NCBI GenBank assembly: GCA_003141555.1
Contig: PLMN01000012.1
Location: forward strand, 139,487 to 203,486
Reading direction: 5' to 3'
Source of the DNA: Candidatus Aminicenantes bacterium
GTDB lineage: Bacteria; Acidobacteriota; Aminicenantia; Aminicenantales; UBA4085
DNA: 64,000 bases
The notes under the pieces are model-generated. The model saw nothing but the letters and a program-made list of their open reading frames with translations, did no database searches and was not told where the DNA came from. Positions 33,388 to 49,908 of this stretch are shown piece by piece (within the stretch, counting starts at the first letter, position 1; each line of letters begins with the position of its first letter). A program made the translations under genes and the position numbers.

Positions 33388-33416
33388 TTGACAGGCCCGC
33401 GGGGGCGGGCTATAGT
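33388..33416 (+). promoter_or_regulatory. Sigma70 consensus promoter (TTGACA-N17-TATAGT)
   Basis: It lies about 70 nt upstream of the ATG at 33490. Confidence 0.45.
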
Positions 33417-33489
33417 CGAGCGAGGCGTGCGGCCGGGGCCGCGCTGCCGCCGGCTTGATTTGGAATCGAATTCCCAGCGAGGTGACGCC

Positions 33490-36400
33490 ATGAAATCCGC
33501 CTTCCGGCTCGGTCTTCTGATCCTGGCCTTGACGTCGGTCCTGCTGTTCCCCCAGCAGAATGACCTGTCCAAGACCAAGGTTCTCTACACGGTCGGGTAC
33601 GCCCACCTGGACACTCAATGGCGGTGGGATTACCAGACGACCATCAATGAGTACATCTGGAACACGATGGCCTTCAACTTCAAGCTCTTCGAGAAGTACC
33701 CCGATTATGTATTCAACTTCAGCGGGGCCAACCGCTACAAGATGATGAAGGAATATTACCCCGAGGAATTCGAGCGGGTGAAGAAGTACGCGGCGGCCGG
33801 CCGCTGGTTCCCGTCCGGGGCCTCGATGGAGGAGAACGACGTGCTCGCGCCGTCGCATGAGTCCATCATCCGCCAGATCCTCCTCGGGAGCGGCTTCTTC
33901 CGCCGGGAGCTCGGCGTGACGAGCCAGGAATTCATGATCCCCGACTGCTTCGGCTTTCCGGCCTCGCTGCCTTCGATCCTGGCCCATTGCGGCCTTCAGG
34001 GCTTCTCCACCCAGAAACTCACCTGGGGATCGGCCGTCGGGATCCCGTTCAACGTCGGGACCTGGATCGGGCCGGATGGCCGGTCCGTCACCGCCGCCTT
34101 AAACCCGGGCGACTATAGCGGCTTGGTCTCCGAGGACCTTAGCGCCAACGCCCAATGGAAGGCGCGGATCGAGGGTCTCGGAGCCAAGGCGGGCGCCTTC
34201 ACGGACTATATGTATTACGGGACGGGCGACGTCGGCGGGTCCCCGTCGGACGACTCGGTCGCCTGGATCGAGAAGAGCCTGAAGAGTAACCGGGATTTCA
34301 AGGTCGTCTCGGCCCCGTCCGACCAGATGTTCAAGGACCTGACGCCCGCCCAGAAGGCGAAGCTCCCGACCTACAAGGGCGAGATGCTCCTGACGAACCA
34401 TTCGTCCGGGTCGATCACCTCGCAGGCCGCCATGAAGCGCTGGAACCGGAAGAACGAGCTGGCCGCGGCACGGGCCGAGTCGGCCGCCGTCGTCGGCGAG
34501 TGGCTCGGCGGCCTGGCCTATCCGCGGGAGCGCCTGGACGAAGCCTGGCGCCTGGTGTTGGGCGGTCAATTCCACGACATCCTCCCGGGCACGAGCATTC
34601 CCCGGGCCTATGAATTCTCTTGGAACGACGAGCTCGTCGCGTCGAACCAGTTCAACGCCGTGTTCGCCGGGGCGGCCGGGGCTGTGGTCCGCGCCCTGGA
34701 CACCGAGGTGAAGGGGATCCCGTTCGTCGTAGCCAACCCCTTGGCCCTCGAGCGAGAAGATTCCGTCGAAGCCCAGGTCGCGTTCGACGCAGCGCCCAAG
34801 GCCGTCAGGGTCTTCGACCGCGACGGCAAGGAAGTCCCCTCCCAAGTGACCCGGGCCGACGGCTCCGCGCTGACGGTCCTTTTCCTGGCGAAGGTTCCCT
34901 CGCTGGGCTATGCGGTGTTCGACATTCGGCCGGCGGAGTCGCCCTGCGCCCTGGCAACGGGCTTGAAGGCGAGCGGGTTGTCGCTTGAAAACGGGAAATA
35001 CTTGGTCAAGCTCGACGCCGCGGGCGATGTCGTCAGCATCTTCGACAAGATCGCCGGCCGGGAGCTCCTTGCCGCGCCGGCCCGCCTGGAGTTCCACTAT
35101 GAGCGGCCTGCCCAATGGCCTGCCTGGAACATGGACTGGGAGGACCGGATCAAGCCGGCCTCGGGCTTCGTCGGAGGGCCGGCGAAGATCACGATCGTCG
35201 AGAACGGCCCGGCCCGGGTCGCGCTGGCCGTGGAGCGAGAGTCCCGCCATTCCAAGGTCGTCCAGGTCATACGCCTGTCCGCGGCCGGGAGCCGGGACCG
35301 GGTCGAGTTCGCATCGACCATCGATTGGGCGACGAAGGAATCCTCCCTGAAGGCGTCCTTCCCCCTGACCGTGGCCAATCCCAAGGCGACTTACAACTGG
35401 GGCGTCGGGACGATCGAGCGGGGCAACAACGATCCCGTCAAGTTCGAGGTCCCCTCGCACCAGTGGTTCGACCTGACGGACACGGACGGCCGCTACGGCG
35501 TGGCGGTCCTCGAGGACTGCAAATACGGATCCGACAAACCGGCGGACAACATCGTCCGCCTGACGCTTCTCTATACCCCCGGCGTCCGGGGATCCTACCG
35601 GGAACAGGCCTACCAGGATTTCGGACGTCACGAGATCCTCTATGCCCTTTACGGCCATTCGGGCGACTGGCGGGCGGCCGACGTCAACCTGCAGGGAGAC
35701 CGCCTAAACCAGCCCCTGGTCGTGTTCCGGGCCGCTTCCCATATCGGCTCCGCCGGCAAGGCCCTCTCGTTCCTCGCGGTCAACAACAAGGACGTCGTCG
35801 TATCCGCGGTCAAGAAAGCGGAAGCGGGTGACGAGGTGATCGTGCGCGTGGTCGAAGCGAAGGGCAAGGCGGCAAAAGGGGTGGCCCTGGCCTTCGCCGC
35901 TCCGGTCGCGGCGGCGCGCGAAGTGAACGGCCAGGAACAGGAGCTTGGCCCGGCCGCGGTCAAGGACGGGAAGCTCGTCTTCGACATCACGCCTTACAGC
36001 CTTAGGACGTTCGCCTTGAAGCTCCAGCCGCCCGCTTCGCCCCTCGCCCCGGCCGTGTCCGCGCCGGTCGACCTCCCGTACAACGTCGACGTCATCAGCC
36101 CGGACAAGCACAAATCCGACGGAGATTTCGACGGGACGGGCAGATCCTTCCCGGCCGAGCTTATTCCCGACACCATCACGAGCGACGGCATCCTCTTCAA
36201 GATGGGACCCAAGGCCGACGGCGCCCTGAACGCCGTCGCCTGCGCTGGCCAGACCATCAATCTGCCCGCAGGAAATTTCAATCGGCTCTACCTGTTGGCG
36301 GCGGCTCAGGAGGGCGGCGCCCGGGGAGGCGATCCCGCGGTCCCGACCTCTGGCTCGCGGTCCGTCTTCAAGGTGGGAGGCAAGCCGCTGGAGATCACGG

Positions 36401-37497
36401 TTGAAGCCTGGGCCGGCTTCTATGGCCAATGGGACAAGCGGCTCTGGGACGGCGACAGCGCCTCGACGAGCTTCGACCGCGGGATCAACTACGTGGGTCT
36501 CGCCCCGGCTTACGTCCGTAAGGACGCGATCGCCTGGTTTACGACCCATCGGCACCTCCGCAGCGGGGCCAATGATCCTTATATGTATGCGTACATCTAC
36601 AAATACCGGGTCGACCTCCCGGCCGGAGCGAAAGAGATCACGTTTCCGTCGAACGAGCGGATCAAGGTCTTCGCCCTCACGGCCGCGGCCAACCAGAACG
36701 ACGACGCCGCGCCAGCCCAGCCCCTGTCCGACACGCTGGCCCGCGACCGGCGTGGATTCGGCCGATTCGCGGCCGTCCCGAAGCCGCTGATCTCTCCCGA
36801 AAAGGCTTTCATCGACTACGCCCGGCCTCTCGCCGTGACCATGCTGGTCCCCGACGAGGCGGCCGAGATCCGCTACACGCTCGACGGGAGCGTGCCGACC
36901 GAGACGTCCCCCCTCTACACCGGTCCCATCAGCCTAACCCAATCGACCGTCGTCACTGCGGCCGCGTTCGACCCGGTAAGGCTTCCGAGCGTCCCCGCCG
37001 TCGCGACGTTCAGCCGGTCGCTTCCGGTCAAGAGCGCCCGCTATATCGTCCCGCCGCCCGCGGGGCGGGGAGGGGGGGGCGCGTCCGGCGGCCGGGCGCT
37101 GATCGATCTCGTCCGGGCCGCGGAACCCGGCGACCGAGCCTGGCAGATGTTCGGGCCGGCCGACCTCGACGTCGTCCTCGACCTCGGCCAGGTCCGGACC
37201 GTTGAGGGCCTCGTCCTCGGGACCCTGGAGAACCACGGCGGAAGGGTGTTCCTGCCCGTGGCCGTCGAAATCGCGACCTCGCTCGACGACAAGGACTATA
37301 AGATTGCGCTCTCTGAGAAGCTCGATCCGCCCTCGGCGGCCCGGCCGCTCTCGCTGAAAAGTCTGGCCTACGATTTGAAGAAGACGCCCGCCCGGTTCAT
37401 CCGGGTCAAGGCGAAGAATATCGGGACGCTGCCGGCCTGGCATCAGAATGCCGGGCAGCCGGCCCAGATGGCCTTCGACGAGATCCTGATCAAATAG
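33490..37497 (+). CDS. Secreted glycoside hydrolase family 38 alpha-mannosidase with C-terminal accessory domains
   Basis: Signal peptide MKSAFRLGLLILALTS. GH38 N-terminal signature (YTVGYAHLDTQWRW). 1335 aa. C-terminal CHB_HEX_C-like segment (EIRYTLDGSVPT...YTGPISL). Confidence 0.8.
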   Translation: MKSAFRLGLLILALTSVLLFPQQNDLSKTKVLYTVGYAHLDTQWRWDYQTTINEYIWNTMAFNFKLFEKYPDYVFNFSGANRYKMMKEYYPEEFERVKKYAAAGRWFPSGASMEENDVLAPSHESIIRQILLGSGFFRRELGVTSQEFMIPDCFGFPASLPSILAHCGLQGFSTQKLTWGSAVGIPFNVGTWIGPDGRSVTAALNPGDYSGLVSEDLSANAQWKARIEGLGAKAGAFTDYMYYGTGDVGGSPSDDSVAWIEKSLKSNRDFKVVSAPSDQMFKDLTPAQKAKLPTYKGEMLLTNHSSGSITSQAAMKRWNRKNELAAARAESAAVVGEWLGGLAYPRERLDEAWRLVLGGQFHDILPGTSIPRAYEFSWNDELVASNQFNAVFAGAAGAVVRALDTEVKGIPFVVANPLALEREDSVEAQVAFDAAPKAVRVFDRDGKEVPSQVTRADGSALTVLFLAKVPSLGYAVFDIRPAESPCALATGLKASGLSLENGKYLVKLDAAGDVVSIFDKIAGRELLAAPARLEFHYERPAQWPAWNMDWEDRIKPASGFVGGPAKITIVENGPARVALAVERESRHSKVVQVIRLSAAGSRDRVEFASTIDWATKESSLKASFPLTVANPKATYNWGVGTIERGNNDPVKFEVPSHQWFDLTDTDGRYGVAVLEDCKYGSDKPADNIVRLTLLYTPGVRGSYREQAYQDFGRHEILYALYGHSGDWRAADVNLQGDRLNQPLVVFRAASHIGSAGKALSFLAVNNKDVVVSAVKKAEAGDEVIVRVVEAKGKAAKGVALAFAAPVAAAREVNGQEQELGPAAVKDGKLVFDITPYSLRTFALKLQPPASPLAPAVSAPVDLPYNVDVISPDKHKSDGDFDGTGRSFPAELIPDTITSDGILFKMGPKADGALNAVACAGQTINLPAGNFNRLYLLAAAQEGGARGGDPAVPTSGSRSVFKVGGKPLEITVEAWAGFYGQWDKRLWDGDSASTSFDRGINYVGLAPAYVRKDAIAWFTTHRHLRSGANDPYMYAYIYKYRVDLPAGAKEITFPSNERIKVFALTAAANQNDDAAPAQPLSDTLARDRRGFGRFAAVPKPLISPEKAFIDYARPLAVTMLVPDEAAEIRYTLDGSVPTETSPLYTGPISLTQSTVVTAAAFDPVRLPSVPAVATFSRSLPVKSARYIVPPPAGRGGGGASGGRALIDLVRAAEPGDRAWQMFGPADLDVVLDLGQVRTVEGLVLGTLENHGGRVFLPVAVEIATSLDDKDYKIALSEKLDPPSAARPLSLKSLAYDLKKTPARFIRVKAKNIGTLPAWHQNAGQPAQMAFDEILIK

Positions 37498-37596
37498 AGG
37501 ATCGAGAGCGGCCGACCGCAAAGCCCCGCGCCGGCGAATTGTCAAATTAGCTGAGTGAATTCAGAGAACCGTCTCGATACGAATGGGGAAAATGAA

Positions 37597-39183
37597 ATGA
37601 AAAAGCTGAACAGGGTTTTATGGTTATGTCTATTCCTGGCTGCTCTTACGCCCGTGTTCTCGCAGTCCGGCATCGTTCGGGGGCAGGGGATGAAAGTGGG
37701 CTCCGCGTATTTAGCCACGAACATCCATGTTACGCTCAACCCCTACGGCATGGCCCCGCTTGCGGCCTTGGCGGAGTTCACGACCCAGTTCCCTTGCGAC
37801 GTCATGGTCCAGGTGCAAGGCGACATTCCGATCAACAAGGACTTCAAGGACAACAGCACCTCCCATTCCATCCCGATCGTCGGACTGTATCCCGGCCAGG
37901 TGAACTCGGTCGTCCTGACCCTCTACCGTCATCATGGCGATCCGGAGATCCAGACGCTCTCGATCCTGACGGCCCCTCTTCCCGCCTGGTTTCCGACGAT
38001 CGAGATCAATACCGCCGTTCCCGCCCTCATGGAGCCGGGCTTCAATGTCTGCGATTTCGCCTACACCACGGGCACGGGCGTCATCGTCGATCCGTACATC
38101 TTCGACGCCGAAGGCCAGGTCCGGGCTTATTTCGACTTGTCGAATACGCCGGGGCAGGCCTTCCCCTTCGAGCGGATGGCGAACGGGAACTTCATCTTCG
38201 GCGTCGGGCCGTCGATCTACGAGATCGACATCATGGGCAAGATCCGGAACAAGCTCACCTTGCCCGGCTACGGCTTCCACCACGACATCCGGGAGATGCC
38301 CGATGGAAGCCTCATCGCCAACGTGAACAAGGACGGCACCCAGATCATCAACAGCACGGGCGTCGTCAACAGCATCGAGGACCGTATGATCCAGATCAAC
38401 CGGACGACCGGGGCCATCATGGGTGAATGGGACATGCGGGCCCTGCTCACCGTGAGCCGCAATGAGGTCATCAACAACACCGGCGATTGGTTCCACATGA
38501 ACGGAATCTGGTACAGCGTCCCGGACGATTGCTTCATCATCTCGGGCCGTCACCAGGCCGTGATCAAGGTCACGCGCGACAACAAGCTCAAGTGGATCCT
38601 GGCCGGCCACGACGGCTGGGGGAACTCCGGCTGGGACGGATCGGGCCCCAGTCCCGCGCCGTATCTCCTCACCGCCCTCGACCCCAACGGCAATCCGGAA
38701 CCCGACATCGTCCAGAACGGCGAGGCCGCCGCCGCCGACTTCGACTGGACCTGGGGCCAGCATTGTCCCAGCCTTTTGCCGAACGGGGACCTCTTCTGCT
38801 TCGACAACGGCTTCCGCCGCTGGTTCCAGGGCATCGGCGGCTTGTACTCCCGCGGCGCGGAATTCGCCATCGACGAGAAGGCCATGACGGTCCGGCAGAT
38901 CTGGCAATACGGCGCGGATCGAGGAGTCGAGACGTATTCGACGATCATCAGCTCCGCCGACCGCCTGCCGATCACCCAGAACCGCCTGATCTCGCCCGGA
39001 ATCGTCCAGATTCCGCCCGGGAGCACTGCTGTTTGCTATTCCAAGATGATTGAGGTCACGTATCCGGCCGGGCAGATCGTCTTCGAGGCCACCTCCCATT
39101 TCAAGAACCTGCTGTCCCAGACGGCCGGCAACGGGGGATTCGACCTGACCTATCGCTCGCACCGGATCCCGTCCCTTTACTGA
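37597..39183 (+). CDS. Aryl-sulfate sulfotransferase (ASST)-like beta-propeller protein
   Basis: Signal peptide. Motifs resembling the ASST family (FHHDIREMPDGS, GDWFHMNGI). Confidence 0.5.
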   Translation: MKKLNRVLWLCLFLAALTPVFSQSGIVRGQGMKVGSAYLATNIHVTLNPYGMAPLAALAEFTTQFPCDVMVQVQGDIPINKDFKDNSTSHSIPIVGLYPGQVNSVVLTLYRHHGDPEIQTLSILTAPLPAWFPTIEINTAVPALMEPGFNVCDFAYTTGTGVIVDPYIFDAEGQVRAYFDLSNTPGQAFPFERMANGNFIFGVGPSIYEIDIMGKIRNKLTLPGYGFHHDIREMPDGSLIANVNKDGTQIINSTGVVNSIEDRMIQINRTTGAIMGEWDMRALLTVSRNEVINNTGDWFHMNGIWYSVPDDCFIISGRHQAVIKVTRDNKLKWILAGHDGWGNSGWDGSGPSPAPYLLTALDPNGNPEPDIVQNGEAAAADFDWTWGQHCPSLLPNGDLFCFDNGFRRWFQGIGGLYSRGAEFAIDEKAMTVRQIWQYGADRGVETYSTIISSADRLPITQNRLISPGIVQIPPGSTAVCYSKMIEVTYPAGQIVFEATSHFKNLLSQTAGNGGFDLTYRSHRIPSLY

Positions 39184-39293: not shown

Positions 39294-40634
39294 ATGAACG
39301 GACCATTGAACATCCTCGTCGTCGACGACGAAGCCAACATTCGGAGGACCCTGTCGGTCTATCTGGAAACCGAAGGGCACCGGGTCGTCGGCGTCGGCAA
39401 TTCCCGGGACGCCCTGGCCGAGGCGCGGCGCCGCTCGTTCGATCTCGCGTTCGTCGACCTGCGCCTCGGGACTTCGGACGGAATGGATCTCATCCCCGCC
39501 CTCCTGGCCGCGACGCCGTGGCTGAAGATCGTGGTCATCACCGCCTTCGCCTCGATCGACACGGCGGTCGAAGCCATCCGCCGCGGCGCGACCGATTACA
39601 TCCCCAAGCCGTTCACGCCGGCTCAGATCGGCCTGTCCGTCCGGAAGGCGTTCGAGATGAGGACGCTCGAGCAACGCGTGGCCACCCTCCAGGAAGATCT
39701 CGTCCGGACGAGGCCGGAGTTCGACTTCGCGAGCGCCCATCCCGCCATGAGGAAAGCCGTGGAGCTCGCCCGCCAGGCGGCGGCCTCGGAGGCGACGATC
39801 CTTCTCCGCGGAGAGAGTGGGACGGGAAAGACCGTCCTGGCCCGGGCGGTCCACGCCTGGAGCCCGCGGGCCGCGCGTCCGTTCGGCGTCGTGTCCTGCC
39901 CCGCCTTCTCGTCGGAGCTCCTGGAAAGCGAGCTTTTCGGCCATGCAAAAGGCGCATTCACGGGTGCGGTTCGGGAGAATCCCGGCCGCATCGCCGTCTG
40001 CGAAGGGGGCACGCTCTTCCTCGACGAGATCGGGGATCTGCCGCTCGGGCTCCAGCCGAAAATCCTGAGATTCGTCCAGGACCGGGGGTACGAGCGCGTG
40101 GGCGATCCTGTCCCGCGGCGAGCGGACGTGCGCCTGATTGCCGCCACGAACCTCGACCTCGAGCGCGCGATGAAAGAGGGCCGCTTCCGGGAGGACCTCT
40201 ACTACCGACTGGCCGTCATTCCCATCGATCTCCCTCCCTTGCGGGAACGGCCGGACGATGTGGAGGCTCTGGCCGGCCGGCTGCTGGCGTTTTATGCCCG
40301 GGCCAACCACCGGACCTTTGCCGGATTCTCGCCCGAGGCCTTGCGCGCGCTCCAGAGCTATTCCTGGCCGGGCAACATCCGGGAGCTCAGCAACGTCATC
40401 GAGCGGGCGGCCATCATGTGCCGGACCGACCGCATCGGGATCGAATTCCTCCCTGCCGGGCTGCAGCCCGGGGAGTCCGCACCGAAGGTCGGCGATAGGA
40501 TCTCCCTGGACAAAGTCGAGGAACAGCACATCCGCAAGGTTCTCGCTTCCGCGAAGTCCCTGCAGGAAGCCGCTGACATTCTTGGGATCGACCAAGCCAC
40601 CCTCTGGCGTCGCCGCAAAAAATACGATATCTGA
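39294..40634 (+). CDS. Sigma54-dependent Fis-family response regulator (NtrC-type: REC plus AAA+ plus HTH)
   Basis: REC domain (ILVVDDE...D54). Sigma54-interaction motifs GESGTGKT and GAFTGA. C-terminal Fis-type HTH. Confidence 0.9.
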   Translation: MNGPLNILVVDDEANIRRTLSVYLETEGHRVVGVGNSRDALAEARRRSFDLAFVDLRLGTSDGMDLIPALLAATPWLKIVVITAFASIDTAVEAIRRGATDYIPKPFTPAQIGLSVRKAFEMRTLEQRVATLQEDLVRTRPEFDFASAHPAMRKAVELARQAAASEATILLRGESGTGKTVLARAVHAWSPRAARPFGVVSCPAFSSELLESELFGHAKGAFTGAVRENPGRIAVCEGGTLFLDEIGDLPLGLQPKILRFVQDRGYERVGDPVPRRADVRLIAATNLDLERAMKEGRFREDLYYRLAVIPIDLPPLRERPDDVEALAGRLLAFYARANHRTFAGFSPEALRALQSYSWPGNIRELSNVIERAAIMCRTDRIGIEFLPAGLQPGESAPKVGDRISLDKVEEQHIRKVLASAKSLQEAADILGIDQATLWRRRKKYDI

Positions 40635-40784
40635 CCTTTCTCCCGCCGGATTTCCGCCAACTAACTTATTTTTTGCGTTGCAAAATTCAATGTTATTTTG
40701 TATCGCCCATTGCATAATGCAATATGGGGTGTTTTAAATAGTGTTTATTTTACTTATATTCAGATGGTTACCGACGCATCCGCT

Positions 40785-40800
40785 TGGCATGGGACTTGCA
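40785..40800 (+). promoter_or_regulatory. Sigma54 (-24/-12) promoter TGGCAT-N5-TTGCA
   Basis: The CTTGGCATGGGACTTGCATTG match lies about 25-40 nt upstream of the kinase start. Upstream palindromes TTGCATAATGCAA (40717-40729) and TTTTGCgtTGCAAAA are candidate enhancer sites. Confidence 0.5.
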
Positions 40801-40822: not shown

Positions 40823-42673
40823 ATGAATATGCTTGGAATTCGTCAAAAAGTCATCCTTGGTTTTGCCGGCCTGTTAATCATCATCCTGGCCATCGGCGTC
40901 CAAAGCATCGTGACCCTGACCGGCTTGGGAGAATCGATCGATGTCATCTTGAGGGAAAACTACCTGAGCGTCATCGCCTGCCAGGAGATGAAGGAAGGTC
41001 TCGAGCGGATCGACAGCGGCCTGCTTTTCACTCTCCTCGGCGACCGGGCCCAGGGCGAAGATCTCATCCTCAAAAACGAAGCCGTGTTCGAGAAGGCCCT
41101 CCAGACCGAGCTGAACAACATCACCGTGCCGGGGGAAGGCAAGACGGCCGAAAGGCTCCGGGGCCTTTATGCCACGTACCGGGACACGCTGCCCCAGGCC
41201 GTCGCCGCGGATCGGCCCCTGGCCCTGCGCCACGATGCTTATTTTTCATCGCTCTTCCCTCTGTTCGGTCAAATCAAGGCGGCGGCCGAAGAGATCCTCC
41301 AGATGAACCAGCGGAACATGAGCGAGGCGAACGACCGGGCGCGCCTGAGCGCCTCCCAGGCCCGAAGCGGCATGTATCTCCTCCTCGGCTTGTGCACCCT
41401 CATCGCCATCGCGTTCATGCATTTCACCGGCCGCTGGATCCTGAGGCCCGTGAAGCGTTTGACCCTCTCCGCGGACGAGATCCGGCGGGGAAACCTCGAT
41501 CTCGTCGTCCCCAGCGATTCTCATGACGAGATTGGAACTCTGGCGGAATCGTTCAATGCGATGGCCGCCAGCCTGCGCGAACTCCGCCGGACCGACCAGG
41601 CTCGTCTCCTCCGCGTCCAGCGCGCGACACAGGAGGCCTTTGACCGGCTCCCCGATGCCGTCGCGGTCGTCGACCTCGAAGGCCGCGTCGAGGTGTCGAC
41701 CGAATCGGCCAAGACCGTCTTCGGCCTCCGGCCGGGCGCGCCGATCTTCGATTTGCCGTACGGGCTGGCCGATTACTTCAAGGAAGCGCTGGCGGAAGGC
41801 CGGCCCGTTCCGGCCGAATCCCAGGCGCCGATGATCCAACGGTTCGTGGGCGGAGAGGAGCGCTTCTTCCGCCCGGAGGCGGTTCCCATCCGGGACGCCG
41901 ACCGGCAGCCGACCGGAGCGATTTTCGTTCTCCACGACGTCACCCAGCTCCGCCAGCAAAACGAGCTGAAGACGAGCGTCATCCGCGCGGTTTCCCACCA
42001 GCTCAAGACGCCCATGACGTCCATCCGGATGGCAATCCACGTCCTCCTCGAGGAAAAGATCGGAAGCTTGAGCGAGAAGCAGGCCGAAGTCCTCTTGGCA
42101 GCGCGCGAAGACAGCGACCGGCTCCAGGAAATCTTGAGCAATCTCCTCGATATCGGCCGAACGGAGTCGGGCAAGGCCGAGGTCTACAACTATCAGTCCT
42201 TCTCCCCGCAGTCGCTGGTTATGGACGCCTTGGAACCGTTCCGGCGGACGGCCCAGGAGAAGGGCATCGCCCTGGGAGTCGAACTCCGCGGCAACCTTCC
42301 CGACGTCTGGACGGACCGGACCCGCACCAGTCACGTTTTCGCCAACCTCCTCTCCAACGCCATCCGCCACACGCCGGCGGGCGGGCGCCTTTTCCTCGCG
42401 GCAAAAGAGGAAGAGGACGTCGTCCGGTTCGTGGTTTCCGATACGGGGGAAGGTATCCCGGCCGAGTTCGTGGGCCATGTTTTCGAGCCGCTGTTCCGCG
42501 TCCCCGGCCGCGATTCCGCTGGCGGCCCGGGGCTCGGCCTAGCCACCGCCAAGGAGATCGTCGAGGCCCAGGGAGGGACGATCTCCGTCGAAAGCCGGGA
42601 GGGGAAGGGGACGACGTTCTCGTTCACCCTTCGCCGGACGGATCGGATCGATTCCAAGGAGGTTTCCCAATGA
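40823..42673 (+). CDS. Sensor histidine kinase (periplasmic sensor, HAMP, PAS-like, HisKA, HATPase_c)
   Basis: Two TM segments flank a ~150-aa loop. H-box AVSHQLKTPMTSI. N, G1 and G2 boxes (LLSNAIRHT, DTGEGI, GGPGLGLA). An alternative start at 40829 has better RBS spacing. Confidence 0.85.
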   Translation: MNMLGIRQKVILGFAGLLIIILAIGVQSIVTLTGLGESIDVILRENYLSVIACQEMKEGLERIDSGLLFTLLGDRAQGEDLILKNEAVFEKALQTELNNITVPGEGKTAERLRGLYATYRDTLPQAVAADRPLALRHDAYFSSLFPLFGQIKAAAEEILQMNQRNMSEANDRARLSASQARSGMYLLLGLCTLIAIAFMHFTGRWILRPVKRLTLSADEIRRGNLDLVVPSDSHDEIGTLAESFNAMAASLRELRRTDQARLLRVQRATQEAFDRLPDAVAVVDLEGRVEVSTESAKTVFGLRPGAPIFDLPYGLADYFKEALAEGRPVPAESQAPMIQRFVGGEERFFRPEAVPIRDADRQPTGAIFVLHDVTQLRQQNELKTSVIRAVSHQLKTPMTSIRMAIHVLLEEKIGSLSEKQAEVLLAAREDSDRLQEILSNLLDIGRTESGKAEVYNYQSFSPQSLVMDALEPFRRTAQEKGIALGVELRGNLPDVWTDRTRTSHVFANLLSNAIRHTPAGGRLFLAAKEEEDVVRFVVSDTGEGIPAEFVGHVFEPLFRVPGRDSAGGPGLGLATAKEIVEAQGGTISVESREGKGTTFSFTLRRTDRIDSKEVSQ

Positions 42674-42753
42674 CGGATTTTATCCTGGTCCTGGCCATTG
42701 TCGTACTGTTCTGGCTCGGCGCTCTCTACGTCCGGGCGTGCGACAAGCTGTAA
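42670..42753 (+). CDS. 27-aa hydrophobic peptide translationally coupled to the kinase (KdpF-like or leader peptide)
   Basis: ATGA overlap with the kinase stop. Sequence MTDFILVLAIVVLFWLGALYVRACDKL. Confidence 0.35.
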   Translation: MTDFILVLAIVVLFWLGALYVRACDKL

Positions 42754-42758
42754 CTCCC

Positions 42759-42842
42759 ATGTTCGAACTCATCGCCCTCCTCGCCGGCCTCTTGCTTATC
42801 GGCTATTTGATCTTTACGGTCCTCCGACCGGAGAAATTTTAA
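42759..42842 (+). CDS. kdpF: KdpF, K+-transporting ATPase small subunit
   Basis: MFELIALLAGLLLIGYLIFTVLRPEKF has the typical KdpF length and C-terminal LLRPEKF-like ending. It lies immediately upstream of kdpA. Confidence 0.6.
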   Translation: MFELIALLAGLLLIGYLIFTVLRPEKF

Positions 42843-42857
42843 AGCGATAGGTGACCC

Positions 42858-44585
42858 ATGAATATCCCCGGATGGATCCAACTGGTTCTCTTCCTCGGCG
42901 TCCTCTGCCTGCTGACCAAGCCGGTCGGCCTGCTCCTCAGCCGGGTCCTGGATCCCGAGGGCCGGACGCCGTTCGATCCCGTGCTCAAGCCCATCGAACG
43001 GCTCCTGTATCGTCTCCTCGGCGTCGATCCCAAAGCGGAACAGACCTGGAAACAATACGCCTTTTCGCTCTTCGCCTTCAGCCTGGTCGGCTTGCTGTTC
43101 ACCTATGCCGTTCTCCGCCTTCAACACATCCTGCCCTTGAACCCCCAGAAGCTCGGGCCGGTCCCGCCCGACCTGGCCTTCAACACGGCCGTCAGCTTCT
43201 CGACCAACACCAACTGGCAGAACTATGCGGGCGAGAGCACGCTCTCCTATTTTTCGCAGATGGTGGGGCTCGCTTTCCATAATTTCGCTTCGGCGGCCGC
43301 GGGCATCGCCGTGGCGGCGGCCCTCGTCCGCGGCATCGCCCGGCGTTCGGCAAAAACGCTCGGCTCCTTCTGGGCGGATCTCGTCCGGGTGAACCTCTAC
43401 CTCCTCCTCCCGATCTGCCTCGTCCTATCGCTCGTCCTGGTGTCGCAGGGCGTCATCCAGAATTTCCAGCCCGCCCGCCAGGCGGCCCTGATCGAGCCGG
43501 CCGGGACTGTCGCGACGCAGACGATCCCCCAGGGCCCGGCCGCCTCGCAGATCGCGATCAAGATGCTGGGCACGAACGGGGGCGGGTTCTTCAACGCCAA
43601 TGCCGCCCATCCCTATGAAAACCCGACGCCGTTCTCGAATTTCCTCCAGATGCTGGCCATCTTCCTCATCCCGGCCGGCCTGACCTATTACCTGGGGACG
43701 AGCGTCAAGAACCGAAGGCACGGCTGGGCGGTCTGGACGGCGATGGCCGTCCTGTTCCTGGCCGGGGTTTTCGTCTGCTGGCGGGCTGAAAGCGTCGGCA
43801 ATCCCCGCCTGACGGCTCTTGGCCTGGATTCGGCCGGCGGCAATATGGAAGGCAAGGAAGTCCGGTTCGGCATTTTCAATTCGAGCCTCTTCGCCACGGT
43901 CACGACCGACGCTTCCTGCGGCGCGGTCAACGCCATGCACGACTCGTTCACGCCCCTCGGCGGATTGGTCCCCCTGTTCAACATGCAGCTCGGCGAGGTG
44001 GTATTCGGGGGGGTGGGCGCGGGATTGTATGGGATTCTCGTCTTCGTCGTCCTGGCGGTGTTCCTGACCGGCCTGATGGTCGGGCGGACGCCGGAATACC
44101 TGGGCAAGAAGATCGAGGGTTATGACGTGAAAGTCGCCGTCCTGACCCTGCTCATCCTGATCTTCAGCATCCTCGGCTTCGCCGCTTGGGGCGCGGTCAG
44201 CCGGCCGGGGTTGGCCGGCCTTGGGAATAAAGGCCCCCACGGTCTGAGTGAGATCCTCTATGCATTCTCCTCGGCGACCGGCAACAACGGCAGCGCCTTC
44301 GGCGGATTGAGCGGGAACTCGCCCTGGTACAATGTGACCTTGGGACTGGCCATGTTCTTAGGCCGGTTTTTCATGATCGTTCCGGTCCTGGCCTTGGCCG
44401 GCAGCCTCGGCCGGAAAAAGCTCCTCCCTCCGAGTGAAGCGAGCTTTCCGGTGGGCGGGACGATGTTCATCATCATCCTGATCGGCACGATCGTCATCGT
44501 CGGGGCGCTGACCTACCTTCCCGCTCTGGCCCTCGGCCCGATCGTCGAGCATTTCACGATGTCCGGGTCGGCTCTCGTCTATTAG
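42858..44585 (+). CDS. kdpA: Potassium-transporting ATPase subunit KdpA
   Basis: KdpA N-terminus (WIQLVLFLGVL...) with a multi-TM K+ channel-like fold. 575 aa. Confidence 0.9.
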   Translation: MNIPGWIQLVLFLGVLCLLTKPVGLLLSRVLDPEGRTPFDPVLKPIERLLYRLLGVDPKAEQTWKQYAFSLFAFSLVGLLFTYAVLRLQHILPLNPQKLGPVPPDLAFNTAVSFSTNTNWQNYAGESTLSYFSQMVGLAFHNFASAAAGIAVAAALVRGIARRSAKTLGSFWADLVRVNLYLLLPICLVLSLVLVSQGVIQNFQPARQAALIEPAGTVATQTIPQGPAASQIAIKMLGTNGGGFFNANAAHPYENPTPFSNFLQMLAIFLIPAGLTYYLGTSVKNRRHGWAVWTAMAVLFLAGVFVCWRAESVGNPRLTALGLDSAGGNMEGKEVRFGIFNSSLFATVTTDASCGAVNAMHDSFTPLGGLVPLFNMQLGEVVFGGVGAGLYGILVFVVLAVFLTGLMVGRTPEYLGKKIEGYDVKVAVLTLLILIFSILGFAAWGAVSRPGLAGLGNKGPHGLSEILYAFSSATGNNGSAFGGLSGNSPWYNVTLGLAMFLGRFFMIVPVLALAGSLGRKKLLPPSEASFPVGGTMFIIILIGTIVIVGALTYLPALALGPIVEHFTMSGSALVY

Positions 44586-44594
44586 GGGACGAAT

Positions 44595-46616
44595 ATGATC
44601 GCCAAAACTCATTCGCTGTTCGATCGCCGGATCATCGGCCCGGCCGTGATCGATTCCTTCCGGAAGCTGAATCCGGTCTTTCTCCTCAAGAATCCGGTCA
44701 TCTTCGTGACCGAAGTCGGCGCGGCCCTCTGCACCCTGGCCGTGGCGTTCCGCGGGGCCGGCGAAGCGCCGGGATTCATCTTCCAGATCGCCCTCTGGCT
44801 CTGGTTCACCGTGCTCTTCGCCAATTTCGCCGAAGCCATGGCCGAGGGCCGGGGCAAGGCCCAGGCCGACGAGCTCCGCAAGGCTCGGACGCGGACCCAG
44901 GCCAGTTTGCTCCAGGCCGACGGTTCGGTCCGCATCGTCGCCGCGGAGGAGCTGCGAAAGGGCGACTTCATCGTCGTCGTCGCCCGGGAAGTCATTCCCG
45001 CGGACGGCGAAATTGTCGAAGGTGCGGCTACGGTGGATGAATCGGCCATCACCGGGGAGTCCGCCCCTGTCATCCGGGAAGCGGGCGGCGACCGGAGCGC
45101 CGTGACCGGCGGCACCCGGGTGCTGTCCGATCGGATCAAGGTCCGGGTCACGGCCAACCCCGGCGAGAGTTTCCTTGATCGGATGATCGGGCTGGTCGAG
45201 GGCGCCCACCGCCAGAGAACGCCGAACGAAATCGCCCTGACCATCCTGCTCGCGGCGCTCACGATCATCTTTCTGGTCGTGGTCATCAGTCTTCGGCCCT
45301 TCGGAACCTATTCGGGCGTGTCCTTGACCGTGACGGTTCTCGTGGCCCTCCTTGTCTGTCTCATTCCGACGACCATCGGCGGCCTGCTCAACGCCATCGG
45401 GATCGCGGGCATTGACCGGATGGTCCAGAAAAACGTCCTGGCCATGAGCGGCCGGGCCGTCGAGGCGGCCGGTGACGTCGACGTCCTTCTCCTGGATAAA
45501 ACCGGGACGATCACCCTGGGCGATCGCCAGGCATCGGCCTTCATCCCAGCGCCTGAGGTCACCGTCGAGGACCTGGCCAACGCGGCCCAGCTCGCCTCCC
45601 TGGCCGACGAGACGCCCGAGGGGCGGAGCATCGTCGTCCTGGCCAAAAAATACGGCTTCCGCGGCCGGACCATTTCCGAAATGCCCGGGGCCGTGTTCAT
45701 TCCCTTCTCGGCCCAGACGCGGATGAGCGGCCTGGATTTCGAGGGGCGCCGCATCCGCAAAGGCGCGGCCGTCGCCATCCAGGGATTCACCGGGAAGCCG
45801 ATCGCCGTTGAAGTCCAGGACGCGGTCAGCTACATCTCCCTTTCGGGCGGGACTCCGCTCCTCGTCGCGGACGGTTCGAATGTTCTAGGGGCCATCCATT
45901 TAAAAGACATCGTCAAGGGGGGCCTTCGCGACCGCTTCGAGCGATTCCGGGCCATGGGCATCAAGACGGTCATGATCACCGGGGACAACCGCCTGACCGC
46001 GGCCGCCATCGCCCGCGAGGCGGGCGTCGACGACTTCGTGGCCGAGGCCAAGCCCGAGGACAAGCTCACTTTGATCCGGCGGGAGCAGACGGCCGGCCAC
46101 CTCGTGGCCATGACCGGCGACGGGACGAACGACGCGCCGGCCCTTGCCCAGGCGGACGTCGGGATGGCCATGAACACCGGAACGCAAGCGGCCAAAGAGG
46201 CGGGCAACATGGTCGACCTCGACTCCAATCCCACCAAGCTGATCGAGGTCGTGGAGATCGGAAAACAAATGCTCATCACCCGCGGGGCACTGACGACGTT
46301 CAGCATCGCCAACGATGTGGCCAAGTATTTCGCCATCATCCCCGCCCTGCTGGTCGGCGTCTTCCCGGTCATCGCCCCGCTCAACATCATGGGCCTCCGT
46401 TCCCCGCAGAGCGCGATCCTGAGCGCGGTCATCTTCAATGCGCTCATCATCGTCGCCCTGATTCCCCTGGCCCTCCGTGGGGTGAAGTTCCGGCCTTTGG
46501 GGGCGGCCGCGCTTCTCCGGCGGAACCTCTTGATCTACGGCCTCGGCGGGCTCATCGCCCCCTTCCCGGGCATCAAGATCGTGGATATCATCGTGAACGC
46601 TCTCCATCTCGTGTGA
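44595..46616 (+). CDS. kdpB: Potassium-transporting P-type ATPase subunit KdpB
   Basis: DKTGTIT phosphorylation motif, [18 protein letters not shown] hinge and TGES motif. Confidence 0.9.
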
Positions 46617-46638: not shown

Positions 46639-47232
46639 ATGAAATCCTGGATTCGAGAGATTCGGACATCGCTCCGGGCAACGGCGGCCCTGGTGGTGCT
46701 TCTTTGCGGGCTTTATCCCCTGGCCGTCTGGGGGCCGGCCCAGATCCTCTTCCCGGCGAAGGCCAACGGCTCGCTTCTCGTTCGCGACGGAAAAGTCGTC
46801 GGCTCCGAGCTCATCGGCCAGGGATTCACGGGCGCGGGGTATTTCCATCCCCGTCCTTCGGCCGCGGGCGGTGGATACGACGCCCTGGCCTCGGGGGGCA
46901 GCAACCTGGGACCGTTGTCGAAAGACTTAATCGAAAGCGTCCGGGGGCGCGCGGCCGCCTATCGCGCCGAGAACGGTCTGGAGCCCGGCGCGGCGGTCCC
47001 GGCCGATGCCGTGACCGCTTCGGGCAGCGGACTCGACCCCCATATCTCGCTTCAAAACGCTGGCCTCCAGACTCCGCGCGTTGCCCGGGCCCGGGGCTTG
47101 ACCGAAGCCGCGGTCCGGGAGCTGATCGGATCATTGGCCGAAGGCCGCGACCTGGGGATCTTCGGCGAGGCGAGGGTGAATGTCTTGAAGCTCAATCTCA
47201 CCTTGGATGAAAAACGCGATGGCGGACGATAG
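46639..47232 (+). CDS. kdpC: Potassium-transporting ATPase subunit KdpC
   Basis: Single N-terminal TM. KdpC signature (GSGLDPHIS). 197 aa. Confidence 0.85.
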   Translation: MKSWIREIRTSLRATAALVVLLCGLYPLAVWGPAQILFPAKANGSLLVRDGKVVGSELIGQGFTGAGYFHPRPSAAGGGYDALASGGSNLGPLSKDLIESVRGRAAAYRAENGLEPGAAVPADAVTASGSGLDPHISLQNAGLQTPRVARARGLTEAAVRELIGSLAEGRDLGIFGEARVNVLKLNLTLDEKRDGGR

Positions 47233-48934
47233 GGCCAACGAGTTCCTGCAGCTGATCCGACAATCGCAGCGCGGACGTCTGAAGATCTATCTCGGCTACA
47301 GCGCCGGCGTGGGGAAGACCTACCAGATGCTCCAGGAGGGCCACCGCCTTAAGAGCGACGGCATCGATGTCGTGATCGGCCTGCTCGAGACGCATGGCCG
47401 GACGGCGATCGCCGAGCTGGCCAAGGGACTCGAAGTCGTACCGCGGCGCCGCCGGGATTATCGGGGGATCGCCGTCGAGGAAATGGACGTGGATGCCGTC
47501 CTAGCCCGAAAACCGCAGGTCGCCCTGATCGACGAGCTGGCCCACACCAACGCTCCCGGCAGCCGGAACCCGAAGCGCTATGAGGACGTGCTGGACGTGC
47601 TGGCCGCGGGAATCCACGTCATCACCACCTTGAACGTCCAGCACCTGGAAAGCCTTTACAACATCGTGGAGAATGCCGTCGGGGTCAAGGTGCGGGAACG
47701 GATCCCGGATTCGGTGCTGGTCGAGGCCGACCAGATCGTCGACGTGGATCTGGCGACCGAGGATCTCCGCAAGCGCCTGGAGGACGGCAAGATCTATCCG
47801 CAGGAGCGCATCGCGACCGCTTTGAGCAATTTTTTCATCCCTTCCAACCTCGAGAAGCTGCGAGAACTGACCTTGCGCGAGCTGGCCGCCCAGATCGATT
47901 TCCGCCGGAGGGAAGCCAAGAGCGAGGCGGGCGAGACCGAAGGGGACCAGGTGATGGTCTGCCTGAGCTCGCATGGCCCGAACAGCGAAAAGCTCCTCCG
48001 GTACGGTTCGCGTCTCGCCGGAAAGCTCAACCGCAACTGGTACGCGGTCTATGTCCAGACCCCTTCCGAAGAGGCCACGGTCATCGACGCGAAAGTCCAG
48101 CGCATGCTCTCGGATACGCTGACCTTGGCCAAACAGCTAGGCGCGCTCGTGTTCACCTACAAGGGGGAGAATATCGCGGATACGATCCTCCGCTTCGCCC
48201 GGGAATACCGCGTTGGCCACATCGTCGTCGGCAAGTCGGTCCCCAAGCCGGTTTGGAAGAGGATCGGCCGGAACAAGGCCGTCGTGGAGGACCTCATTGC
48301 TGAGGCGAGGGGGGTGACGGTGATCGTCGTCGATCCCTGCCCGGCCGTCGCGCCGGCCCTCGCCCGGCCCCGGCCGGAGGATGACCGGCGGGAAGAGGGG
48401 TTCGGGAAGGCGGACGCCGAAGGGCCGGAGGCAGCCCCCTCGGCGCCCATCGTGCGCGATCTGCTCAGCCCTTGGCTTTCCCCGCGGCGCATCGTCCTAT
48501 GGGGAGTCCCCGTCGCCAAAGAACAGGTCCTTCGGACGCTTGCCGAGACGGTCAAAAACGAAGACGGCGTTTCCGACCCGGAGAAGCTCTACGCGGACAT
48601 CCTGATCCGGGAGGAGCAGGGATCCACGTTCTTCAACGAGGGCGTCGCTTTCCCTCACGTCCGGGTCGAAGACCTGGCCGCTCCGGTCGTAGCCCTGGGA
48701 TTGACGCGCGGGGGCGTGGCGGATATCTCGACCGACAAGCCGATCGAGCTCGTCTTCCTCATCCTTTCTCCCGCCGGGAACCCTCCCCTTCAAGTGAAGC
48801 TGCTGGGGGCGGCGAGCCGGGCCGCCCAGAGCCGTCCTCTTCTTCAAGCCCTGCGCTCGGCGGAGACGCCCGACGAAGTCCTGCGGGCCATCGTGAACTG
48901 GGAAGCGTCGATTCCGCGCTCCCTGGGCGCGTAA
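47207..48934 (+). CDS. KdpD N-terminal sensor domain plus Usp domain fused to a PTS EIIA(Ntr)/PtsN-like domain, with no TM or histidine-kinase region
   Basis: The KdpD-N P-loop region reads LKIYLGYSAGVGKTYQM...ALIDELAHTN. The Usp domain reads VMVCLSSHGPNSEKL.... The C-terminal EGVAFPHVRVE...ELVFLILSPAGNPPLQVKLL... matches the PTS_EIIA_2 His-site pattern. Confidence 0.8.
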   Translation: MKNAMADDRANEFLQLIRQSQRGRLKIYLGYSAGVGKTYQMLQEGHRLKSDGIDVVIGLLETHGRTAIAELAKGLEVVPRRRRDYRGIAVEEMDVDAVLARKPQVALIDELAHTNAPGSRNPKRYEDVLDVLAAGIHVITTLNVQHLESLYNIVENAVGVKVRERIPDSVLVEADQIVDVDLATEDLRKRLEDGKIYPQERIATALSNFFIPSNLEKLRELTLRELAAQIDFRRREAKSEAGETEGDQVMVCLSSHGPNSEKLLRYGSRLAGKLNRNWYAVYVQTPSEEATVIDAKVQRMLSDTLTLAKQLGALVFTYKGENIADTILRFAREYRVGHIVVGKSVPKPVWKRIGRNKAVVEDLIAEARGVTVIVVDPCPAVAPALARPRPEDDRREEGFGKADAEGPEAAPSAPIVRDLLSPWLSPRRIVLWGVPVAKEQVLRTLAETVKNEDGVSDPEKLYADILIREEQGSTFFNEGVAFPHVRVEDLAAPVVALGLTRGGVADISTDKPIELVFLILSPAGNPPLQVKLLGAASRAAQSRPLLQALRSAETPDEVLRAIVNWEASIPRSLGA

Positions 48935-49005
48935 GTCGGGGGGAGCAATAAAGCAGATTTTCCGGCCTTAAAATTTCGTAAGATCAGCTCTGAAAGGGGA
49001 TGTCC

Positions 49006-49908
49006 ATGAAAAAACTTATTACCGCTTTCGCGGCCTCGGCGCTTTTCCTTGCTTCCGCAACGGTTTTCGCCCAAGCCTCTCCCGCCGATGAACCCAAATC
49101 GCCGTACACGTTTACCGGCAATATTTCCTTAGCCAGCCAATACATCTTCCGCGGACTCGCCCAGACCAACGGTTATCCCGCGCTCCAGGGAGGAATGGAT
49201 TTTTCCCATGCGAGCGGATTCTATGCCGGCATCTGGCTCTCCAACATTTCCTGGTTCACGGACCAGAACGCCAACATCAAGTCGGCCCCGGTTTCGCTCG
49301 CCTCGCCCGGCAGCGTCGGCGCCCCCTATGCGCCGAATCAAAGCAATGCGGCCAGCCTCGAGTGGGATTTCTACGCGGGTTTTAAGAACAGTTTTGCCGG
49401 CGGCAATTGGAACTATGACATAGGCATCATCCAGTACTACTACCCGGGCCGCTACGAAAACATCGGGGCCTACCGCAACCCAAACACGATCGAAATCTAC
49501 GGCTTGATCGGGTACAAATGGGTGTCCTTGAAGTATTCCAAAGGGATAAGCGCCACCACGTTTGGGGTTAACGATTCCAAGGGCGCCGATTATATTGACC
49601 TCTCCGCGACGATTCCCCTGGGCGAGAGTGGTTTCAACCTGTTGGCCCATGTCGGCAAATACAATTTTCCGGGCAAGGCCAATGTCGGATACTGGGGAAC
49701 CTCCGGCGGCAACAACGACTTCTTTGACTATACCGACTACAAGTTGGGGTTAACAAAAGAACTATGGGGCTGTGTCTTCGGATTCGCTTGGACGCATGCC
49801 AACACAAAGGACACCGCCCCAGATGGCCAGACGACCGCTTACTTGAACGCGTTTGGCAAGAACATCGGGGGCCATCGTGTCGGGCTGTCCGTCACAAAGA
49901 CCTTTTGA
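49006..49908 (+). CDS. TorF-family putative outer-membrane porin
   Basis: Signal peptide. Motif ...SQYIFRGLAQTNGYPALQGGMDFSHASGFYAGIWLSN is typical of the TIGR02001/TorF porin family. C-terminal F. Confidence 0.6.
   Translation: MKKLITAFAASALFLASATVFAQASPADEPKSPYTFTGNISLASQYIFRGLAQTNGYPALQGGMDFSHASGFYAGIWLSNISWFTDQNANIKSAPVSLASPGSVGAPYAPNQSNAASLEWDFYAGFKNSFAGGNWNYDIGIIQYYYPGRYENIGAYRNPNTIEIYGLIGYKWVSLKYSKGISATTFGVNDSKGADYIDLSATIPLGESGFNLLAHVGKYNFPGKANVGYWGTSGGNNDFFDYTDYKLGLTKELWGCVFGFAWTHANTKDTAPDGQTTAYLNAFGKNIGGHRVGLSVTKTF

Follow-up and report, generated by a model that had tools for sequence, protein, structure and literature searches.

A widespread fusion of the KdpD N-terminal half to a PtsN-like EIIA domain, encoded in a predicted sigma-54-dependent kdp operon: a candidate PTS-gated regulator of the KdpFABC pump

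The N-terminal domain of KdpD is an atypical Walker A/B serine kinase (Silberberg 2024, PMC11018627) that phosphorylates Ser162 in the TGES loop of KdpB and thereby inhibits the KdpFABC potassium pump; residues 1–230 alone are enough to phosphorylate KdpB in vitro, and the Walker A motif, D109, E110, and W39/R190 of Escherichia coli KdpD are needed for KdpB-S162 phosphorylation (PMC11018627). The inputs to this kinase known so far are K+, acting through the transmembrane (TM) and GAF part of KdpD in E. coli, and cyclic di-AMP (c-di-AMP), acting through the Usp domain in Deinococcus and Firmicutes. Short KdpD/Usp proteins, found in species without KdpE, are post-translational regulators only and need an outsourced signal; that of Deinococcus is stimulated by c-di-AMP and not by K+ (PMC11018627). 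The Usp motif that binds c-di-AMP, SxS-x20-FTAxY, differs from the E. coli-type motif RxxxR-x8-WxAVY (Moscoso 2015, PMC4686210). Kdp is also tied to the nitrogen phosphotransferase system (PTS-Ntr): in E. coli and rhizobia, PtsN in its unphosphorylated form binds KdpD and raises kdp expression, phosphorylated PtsN is the active form in Pseudomonas putida, and rhizobial kdp clusters carry a ptsN2 gene (PMC13104625). According to a study quoted in that review (Mork-Morkenstein 2017, cited in PMC13104625), the part of KdpD on which E. coli PtsN acts is the transmitter domain. In Desulfovibrio vulgaris, a dedicated kdp regulator binds its own operon (PMC3333781). Here we describe a gene in which these two lines of control meet. 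It lies at 47207..48934 (+ strand) of a 64,000-nucleotide (nt) stretch of Candidatus Aminicenantes contig PLMN01000012.1, the whole of which we call the window, and joins a KdpD N-terminal domain (KdpD-N) and a Usp domain, through a linker, to a domain resembling EIIA(Ntr). We propose, at about even confidence, that the fusion protein is a PTS-gated serine kinase that would shut off KdpFABC after its synthesis.

The predicted protein is soluble and 575 amino acids (aa) long; an alternative ATG at 47219 gives a 571-aa form, which is the version in public databases. A first-pass annotation, made from the sequence alone, had proposed the three-domain layout KdpD-N, Usp, and EIIA type 2, and scans with hidden Markov models together with the predicted Usp fold bore it out. 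The KdpD N-terminal domain (residues 21–230; 47267..47896) matched Pfam PF02702 over the entire model (positions 1–210 of 210) with an E value of 2e-90 and a score of 302 bits (cutoff 26.1), and a Foldseek comparison found it 51% identical to structure 2r8r. The Usp domain (approximately residues 249–375; 47951..48331) was recognized by Pfam, fold, and motif. By sequence its match to PF00582, at residues 249–343, was marginal (23.6 bits relative to a cutoff of 24); the assignment was confirmed by a predicted fold superimposing on the KdpD USP structure 7ji4 with a TM-score of 0.85. There followed a variable linker rich in Pro, Ala, and Glu (approximately residues 376–425; 48332..48481), which was the least conserved part of the fusion family (conservation 0.45–0.52) and was modelled as disordered over residues 379–416, where the predicted local distance difference test (pLDDT) fell below 50; this places a stretch of about 45 residues ahead of the EIIA domain, and its low conservation and predicted disorder agree with the Pro/Ala-rich linker described earlier. 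The EIIA type-2 (PtsN-like) domain itself (approximately residues 426–570; 48482..48916) matched PTS_EIIA_2, PF00359, at residues 437–563 with an E value of 1e-18. This match had been named beforehand as a test of the C-terminal region, and at 68.1 bits it was well over the cutoff of 27. E values of this size lie far outside what chance would give.

The TM/GAF/HisKA/HATPase half of KdpD is absent, as had been claimed: no TM segment was found in the fusion protein (maximum hydropathy 1.36), and Pfam and NCBIfam scans of it gave no GAF, HisKA, or HATPase domain. In keeping with this, the full-length KdpD model NF007793 gave 350 bits relative to its cutoff of 1123 and was covered only over positions 10–362 of 895. 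The KdpD_non_kinase model NF038185 was aligned over positions 7–370 of 373, with 359.6 bits relative to a cutoff of 550, and the fusion protein runs about 200 residues past the end of these Usp-terminated proteins.

The KdpD part of the fusion aligned collinearly, and in the same numbering, with residues 21–353 of E. coli KdpD at 44% identity. Its Walker A motif is G30-x5-G36 K37 T38 (nt 47294–47320) and its Walker B pair is D109 E110 (nt 47531–47536). When residue conservation was scored in an alignment of 126 full-length fusion homologues, K37, T38, D109, E110, and R190 were invariant (126 of 126). The presumed target is present as well: KdpB of the same operon has a TGES motif at residues 153–156 (nt 45051–45062), and its Ser156 corresponds to Ser162 of E. 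coli KdpB. We infer from these residues that the KdpD-N domain of the fusion has serine-kinase activity. The statement that the protein lacks the kinase therefore applies to the histidine-kinase half, which is gone; the domain that was retained belongs to a serine kinase family and keeps all of the catalytic residues. The Usp motif of the fusion, R265-xxx-R269-x8-W278-x-AVY (RYGSR-x8-WYAVY), is of the E. coli type, and the c-di-AMP motif SxS-x20-FTAxY of the Staphylococcus aureus type was found in none of the 126 family members.

Within the EIIA domain, the motif EGVAFPHVRV holds His484 (codon nt 48656–48658), whose counterpart in the alignment with E. coli PtsN is His73, the phosphorylated residue, and Arg468 aligned with PtsN Arg57; the phosphorylatable His recognized in the first-pass annotation is thus placed on PtsN His73 by alignment and is present in every homologue. 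His484, Arg468, Thr474, and Pro483 were invariant in all 126 homologues, even though the EIIA domains of some were just 29–40% identical to that of the window protein; the GST motif, too, was invariant across such divergent homologues, and the segment around His484 was the best-conserved part of the EIIA domain in the family. That His484 and Arg468 never vary is the best reason to expect phosphorylation of the fusion, presumably on His484.

To place the EIIA domain among its relatives, we compared both profile and fold. A profile of the fusion family searched against the PDB matched four solved PtsN structures with 66–77 bits (E values from 1e-17 to 1e-20); EIIA-Mtl and other sugar EIIA proteins gave about 32 bits or less (E about 1e-6). 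The domain was modelled with a pLDDT of 85–95, and in Foldseek its best matches were PtsN structures, with TM-scores of 0.82–0.85 compared to 0.72–0.75 for sugar EIIA proteins. These profile and fold comparisons overruled the notion, raised by single-sequence NCBIfam scores, that the domain is no nearer to PtsN than to fructose IIA. The evidence is mixed, and it leans towards a PtsN-like domain; we use that term, and claim no orthology, because the NCBIfam PtsN cutoffs were failed. The parallel with PtsN drawn earlier holds, therefore, for likeness in family profile and fold and does not extend to calling the domain an orthologue.

The genes upstream place the fusion in a kdp operon with its own histidine kinase and response regulator, a gene content that had been noted before and that Pfam and NCBIfam assignments supported. 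The first gene (39294..40634, + strand) encodes a sigma-54-dependent response regulator with REC, AAA+ enhancer-binding, and HTH_8 domains, presumably the activator of the kdp operon. It matched NCBIfam regulators of the AtoC, NtrC, and ZraR types (E about 1e-115), has a Sigma54_activat domain, and carries a GAFTGA motif at residue 220. An AT-rich spacer of 189 nt separates it from the kinase gene. Within this spacer a sigma-54 (−24/−12) promoter, TGGCATGGGACTTGCA, is predicted at 40785..40800 (+ strand), with one mismatch to TGGCACG-N4-TTGCW, ending 23 nt ahead of the kinase start codon; there was no match to the exact consensus TGGCAC-N5-TTGC, and the element was located with a mismatch-tolerant pattern. 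About 60–90 nt upstream of it a perfect palindrome, ATTGCATAATGCAAT, at 40709..40723 is, as read from the sequence, a candidate upstream activating sequence for the regulator. A TTGC-N3-GCAA element at 40673–40683 in the same spacer is a further candidate site for the enhancer-binding regulator.

The second gene (40823..42673, + strand) encodes a membrane sensor histidine kinase in which Pfam recognized a 4HB_MCP-like extracytoplasmic domain, HAMP, PAS, HisKA, and HATPase_c; two TM segments, at about residues 8–30 and 180–205, lie on either side of the 4HB_MCP-like domain. It resembles E. coli KdpD in the generic DHp/CA part only (27% identity) and is not of the KdpD type; a simple H-box pattern found no match in it, and the HisKA assignment rests on Pfam. 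A small hydrophobic open reading frame (ORF) of 27 aa, MTDFILVLAIVVLFWLGALYVRACDKL, at 42670..42753 (+ strand) overlaps the kinase stop codon and lies directly upstream of kdpF (42760..42842, + strand; 27 aa, ending LIGYLIFTVLRPEKF, read from the sequence). Then come kdpA (42858..44585, + strand; Pfam KdpA, E 1e-235), kdpB for the P-type ATPase subunit (44595..46616, + strand; NCBIfam TIGR01497, 1013 bits), and kdpC (46639..47232, + strand; Pfam KdpC, E 3e-70). The fusion gene starts inside the 3′ end of kdpC, the two sharing 26 nt (14 nt if the alternative start is used), which is consistent with translational coupling. Regulator, kinase, small ORF, kdpFABC, and fusion are all on the + strand without sizeable gaps between them. 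We conclude that the fusion is the last gene of a predicted sigma-54-dependent operon with the order hk, small ORF, kdpFABC, kdpD′. No kdpE, canonical kdpD, PTS gene, rpoN, or diadenylate cyclase gene was found in the window, and annotation of twenty further large ORFs there likewise gave no PTS, rpoN, or diadenylate cyclase gene.

The fusion proved not to be the curiosity of a single protein that it might have seemed from one sequence. When a single genome was scanned for each GTDB species, it was found in at least 503 species, and a database search with the fusion returned thousands of relatives, including thousands of metagenome proteins. The best 120 relatives were 556–577 aa long with KdpD and EIIA_2 domains, save for one truncated match of 467 aa having the KdpD domain only, and when the EIIA part was searched exhaustively on its own, the nearest relatives were nearly all fusions or fragments of fusions. 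We inspected the best 80 fusion loci of the GTDB-species scan. Most were from Candidatus Aminicenantes, the nearest being isolate Chersky_507 with 87% identity over the query segment; other hosts of the fusion were Syntrophorhabdus (including the cultured S. aromaticivorans UI), Thermodesulfobacteriota, “delta proteobacteria”, Krumholzibacteria, Deferrimicrobium, and Syntrophobacteraceae. The carriers include closed chromosomes of metagenome-assembled genomes (MAGs), and identical protein occurred on independent contigs. The database names of the fusion, “PTS sugar transporter subunit IIA” (RefSeq WP_242839724.1) and “sensor histidine kinase KdpD” (IMG), do not fit its architecture. Several genomes with near-identical cassettes (L017, L025, L028, L038, L065, L067, and L078 are examples) are recorded as “uncultured Eubacteriales” or “Actinomycetota”, although their sequences group with Aminicenantes; mislabelling or mis-binning of these MAG records is the probable cause.

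The cassette is conserved along with the fusion. In every examined locus having upstream sequence, the fusion follows either kdpC or the histidine kinase gene. Fifty-seven loci had enough upstream flank for the cassette to be counted: the kinase was present in 55, kdpB in 54, the regulator in 50, and all elements in 46, and these 46 span different phyla. In 32 of the 57, an element conforming to a strict −24/−12 pattern lay between −33 and −41 relative to the kinase start, and near-matches occupied the same place in most of the others. Among related loci, kdpF was directly upstream of kdpA in 39, and the C-terminal motif YVRxC[ED]RL of the 27-aa ORF was kept in place in at least six (L009, L012, L029, L038, L039, and L066); its product is possibly another small membrane subunit of the Kdp complex or a regulator of it. 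Three loci (L029, L050, and L069) departed from the usual order in that the kinase gene adjoined the fusion and the cassette's own kdpABC was missing; a second, more divergent kdpABC followed the kinase–fusion pair together with a canonical full-length kdpD, and a match to the sigma-54 regulator was found upstream of the pair in L050 and L069, not in L029. Evidently the regulatory module can combine with a classical Kdp system. Six further loci (L043, at 7615–8874, and L047, L051, L057, L063, and L068), all from delta-proteobacterial or Thermodesulfobacteriota MAGs, had an extra gene between kdpC and the fusion, encoding a 419-aa protein with Usp, DUF4118 (the KdpD membrane domain), and GAF but neither KdpD-N nor DHp/CA. 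In these MAGs the K+-sensing core of KdpD appears to be a stand-alone protein beside the fusion.

In the mechanism that we propose, the fusion would be a soluble paralogue of KdpD that lacks the histidine kinase and is produced together with the pump, and kdp transcription would be run by a separate two-component system, the HAMP-PAS membrane kinase and the NtrC-type regulator, with no KdpD/KdpE. The kinase module of the fusion would phosphorylate Ser156 in the TGES motif of KdpB and so turn the pump off after its synthesis. The PtsN-like EIIA domain on its flexible linker would serve as the regulatory input to the kinase/Usp module: a carrier of the HPr/NPr type, fed from phosphoenolpyruvate by enzyme I (EI) or EI-Ntr, would reversibly phosphorylate His484, this phosphodonor being an assumption; phosphorylation would alter the contacts of EIIA with the kinase/Usp module; and pump inactivation would come to be gated by the phosphorylation state of the PTS, reflecting carbon and nitrogen status and possibly that of K+. 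We assign the input to the EIIA domain because both the K+-sensing TM/GAF part and the c-di-AMP Usp motif are missing. Since the serine-kinase residues were kept and the transmitter targeted by PtsN was lost, the fusion is likely to act post-translationally on the pump, on the co-encoded kinase that is not of the KdpD type, or on both. By analogy, the short KdpD/Usp proteins that act post-translationally on an outsourced signal, c-di-AMP in Deinococcus, offer a supporting precedent, and the link between PTS(Ntr) and Kdp in Proteobacteria, including the rhizobial ptsN2, would make the fusion a natural next step. If so, the fusion might represent a third class of input to the KdpD serine kinase, in which PTS-dependent His phosphorylation decides whether KdpB is phosphorylated and the pump shut off; we put this somewhat below an even chance. 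The first-pass annotation had seen in the fusion two partners, PtsN and KdpD, joined covalently, and a possible hard-wired tie between PTS(Ntr) state and K+ uptake. PtsN-like and KdpD parts are indeed fused and the gene does sit in a kdp operon; on the other side, the KdpD transmitter domain, which is the target of PtsN in E. coli, is missing, and the likely output is not KdpD/KdpE signalling.

Several observations weigh against this proposal. Genes for EI, HPr/NPr, HprK, and RpoN were not found in the window, nor in the 10 kb around the fusion at 86 related loci. When tblastn was carried out with E. coli PtsP, PtsI, HPr, NPr, RapZ, RpoN, and KdpE as queries, down to an E value of 0.05, against the window and about 1.3 Mb of related loci, nothing was found beyond the EIIA domain itself, a result that is uninformative about the rest of these genomes. 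Indirect hints in favour of a donor are reports of a mannose PTS in one MAG of Aminicenantes and, in Geobacter, of EI-Ntr, HPr, and HprK. The position of PtsN His120 is occupied by Gln529 in the fusion, and by Gln in 121 of the 126 homologues and His in 4. The PtsN equivalog models scored far below their cutoffs (TIGR01419, 36.6 relative to 138.7 bits; NF008145, 32.9 relative to 221), the domain was under every NCBIfam EIIA and PtsN cutoff, and in the single-sequence scan a fructose IIA domain model, with 49.7 bits, exceeded the 36.6 bits of PtsN. In the kinase domain, position 39, a Trp that coordinates adenine in E. coli KdpD, is another aromatic residue, Tyr, in the fusion and in 120 of the 126 homologues, R190 being invariant. 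The full-length AlphaFold model, built on a shallow alignment of sequences with at least 70% identity, had a pTM of 0.34 and an N-terminal domain with pLDDT below 50, so that its inter-domain contacts were uninformative. Lastly, as E. coli PtsN targets the histidine-kinase transmitter and not KdpD-N, the target of EIIA here could be the co-encoded kinase.

This last point leads to the alternative that survives best, one that we regard as possible though rather unlikely: the EIIA domain would bind the DHp/CA transmitter of the operon's HAMP-PAS kinase and tune phosphorylation of the sigma-54 regulator, with KdpD-N/Usp acting not as a KdpB kinase but as a scaffold or ATP sensor. In E. coli, free PtsN binds KdpD and PhoR in this way; its activation of KdpD runs through the transmitter (Mork-Morkenstein 2017, cited in PMC13104625), and Pfam gives the operon kinase a transmitter of the HisKA type. 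Kinase and fusion occurred together in 55 of the 57 loci, and in the three loci that lack the cassette's own kdpABC the adjacency of the two was nevertheless kept. In D. vulgaris, moreover, a separate kinase has been taken together with a KdpD-N/Usp protein as one split sensor (PMC3333781). A purely scaffolding role, however, fails to explain the strict invariance of Walker A/B, R190, and the KdpB TGES motif, and most loci place the fusion after kdpC, away from the kinase gene. We ranked gating of the pump above contact with the kinase because the kinase active site and its target in KdpB are strictly conserved, the gene ends the pump operon, and the other inputs are missing. The two roles could operate side by side, the fusion being a transcriptional co-regulator as well as a serine kinase.

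It is less probable, and in our view quite doubtful, that the EIIA-like domain is degenerate and not phosphorylated, serving in dimerization, ligand binding, or autoinhibition with no tie to the PTS, so that the fusion would be another short “non-kinase” KdpD. That would fit the failure to find PTS donor genes near the fusion, the Gln in place of PtsN His120, and the scores under all of the NCBIfam EIIA and PtsN cutoffs, and EIIA-2 folds do occur as non-PTS regulatory domains; cytoplasmic domains of anion exchangers, for example, were among the structural matches. Yet His484, Pro483, Arg468, and the GST motif have stayed invariant while the domains around them diverged to 29–40% identity, which one would not expect of an idle active site, and the nearest relatives in both sequence and fold are bona fide PtsN proteins. 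That a frameshift, misassembly, or miscalled gene had joined a short kdpD to a neighbouring ptsN, a reading considered solely because the window probably derives from a MAG, was effectively ruled out, as the same continuous ORF was present in genomes of at least 503 species, in the isolate S. aromaticivorans UI, in closed MAG chromosomes, and on independent contigs.

Downstream of the fusion, after 65 nt, lies a gene of the Gcw_chp family (49000..49908, + strand; Pfam PF09694) whose product is predicted to be of the outer-membrane type. No convincing terminator was found between the two genes, and cotranscription is possible; the Gcw_chp gene is probably outside the system because it was linked to the fusion in the closest relatives only (L003 and L009). 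Elsewhere in the window are two genes for GH38 alpha-mannosidases, at 24979–27465 (− strand) and 33388–37497 (+ strand), one of which encodes a protein of 1369 aa with chitobiase-type C-terminal domains, and genes for an arylsulfotransferase (37555–39183) and a PilZ-T2SSE ATPase (30897–32297). This neighbourhood suggests a glycan-degrading lifestyle; its genes are unrelated to the fusion.

A search of the full-text literature found no description of a KdpD–EIIA fusion, and it is mentioned neither in the 2024 study that surveyed how KdpD is built across 5495 species (PMC11018627) nor in the 2026 review of PTS-Ntr (PMC13104625). All of the component domains were already known, as was the link between the PTS and Kdp; what is new is the covalent architecture, the pairing with the serine-kinase half of KdpD, the sigma-54 cassette, and the spread in Acidobacteriota and Desulfobacterota. 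Two threads of K+ homeostasis meet in this protein, the serine kinase of KdpD that shuts off KdpFABC and the old, mechanistically disputed link between PtsN and K+ transport. With its intact phospho-His site, and in hundreds of species outside the Proteobacteria, the fusion offers a compact soluble system for asking whether the PTS controls the pump post-translationally; it also indicates that the tie between PTS(Ntr) and Kdp reaches further back, and more widely, than proteobacterial models suggest and documents a widespread type of sigma-54-controlled kdp operon. If PTS gating is correct, several anaerobic phyla would wire the PTS(Ntr)–potassium link straight to the pump, post-translationally, and free PtsN of Proteobacteria may influence KdpD as a serine kinase and not only as a histidine kinase.

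Set against the systems described previously, the fusion is closest in form to the short KdpD of Deinococcus geothermalis (PMC11018627). Both are soluble proteins without TM, GAF, DHp, or CA domains, both combine a Walker A/B kinase domain with Usp, and both occur in a KdpE-less context with an outsourced signal for KdpB phosphorylation; the Deinococcus protein stops after Usp and is stimulated by c-di-AMP, whereas the fusion has an E. coli-type Usp and an extra PtsN-like EIIA domain with an invariant His. With the free PtsN proteins of E. coli, P. putida, and rhizobia (PMC13104625) it shares the EIIA type-2 fold, the His/Arg active site, and the tie to Kdp. In contrast to these, its EIIA domain is covalently joined to the serine-kinase half of KdpD and not to the transmitter domain, has Gln at the position of His120, fails the PtsN equivalog cutoffs, and is encoded in a window without rpoN; furthermore, PTS-Ntr has been studied in alpha-, beta-, and gamma-Proteobacteria, whereas the hosts of the fusion are Acidobacteriota (Aminicenantes) and Desulfobacterota. 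The DVU3334–3339 genes of D. vulgaris (Rajeev 2011, PMC3333781) resemble the cassette in having kdpFABC with a regulator of its own, a separate kinase, and a separate KdpD-N/Usp protein. The published description of the latter (DVU3336) gives it only a K+-sensor domain and a UspA domain and makes no mention of EIIA, and the gene order differs. Relative to E. coli KdpD, the N-terminal 350 or so residues of the fusion are 44% identical and collinear, and the target operon is the same kdpFABC; the fusion lacks the TM, GAF, DHp, and CA domains, its operon lacks KdpE, and in place of the E. coli arrangement kdp transcription here appears to use a sigma-54 promoter, an NtrC-type activator, and an unrelated sensor kinase.

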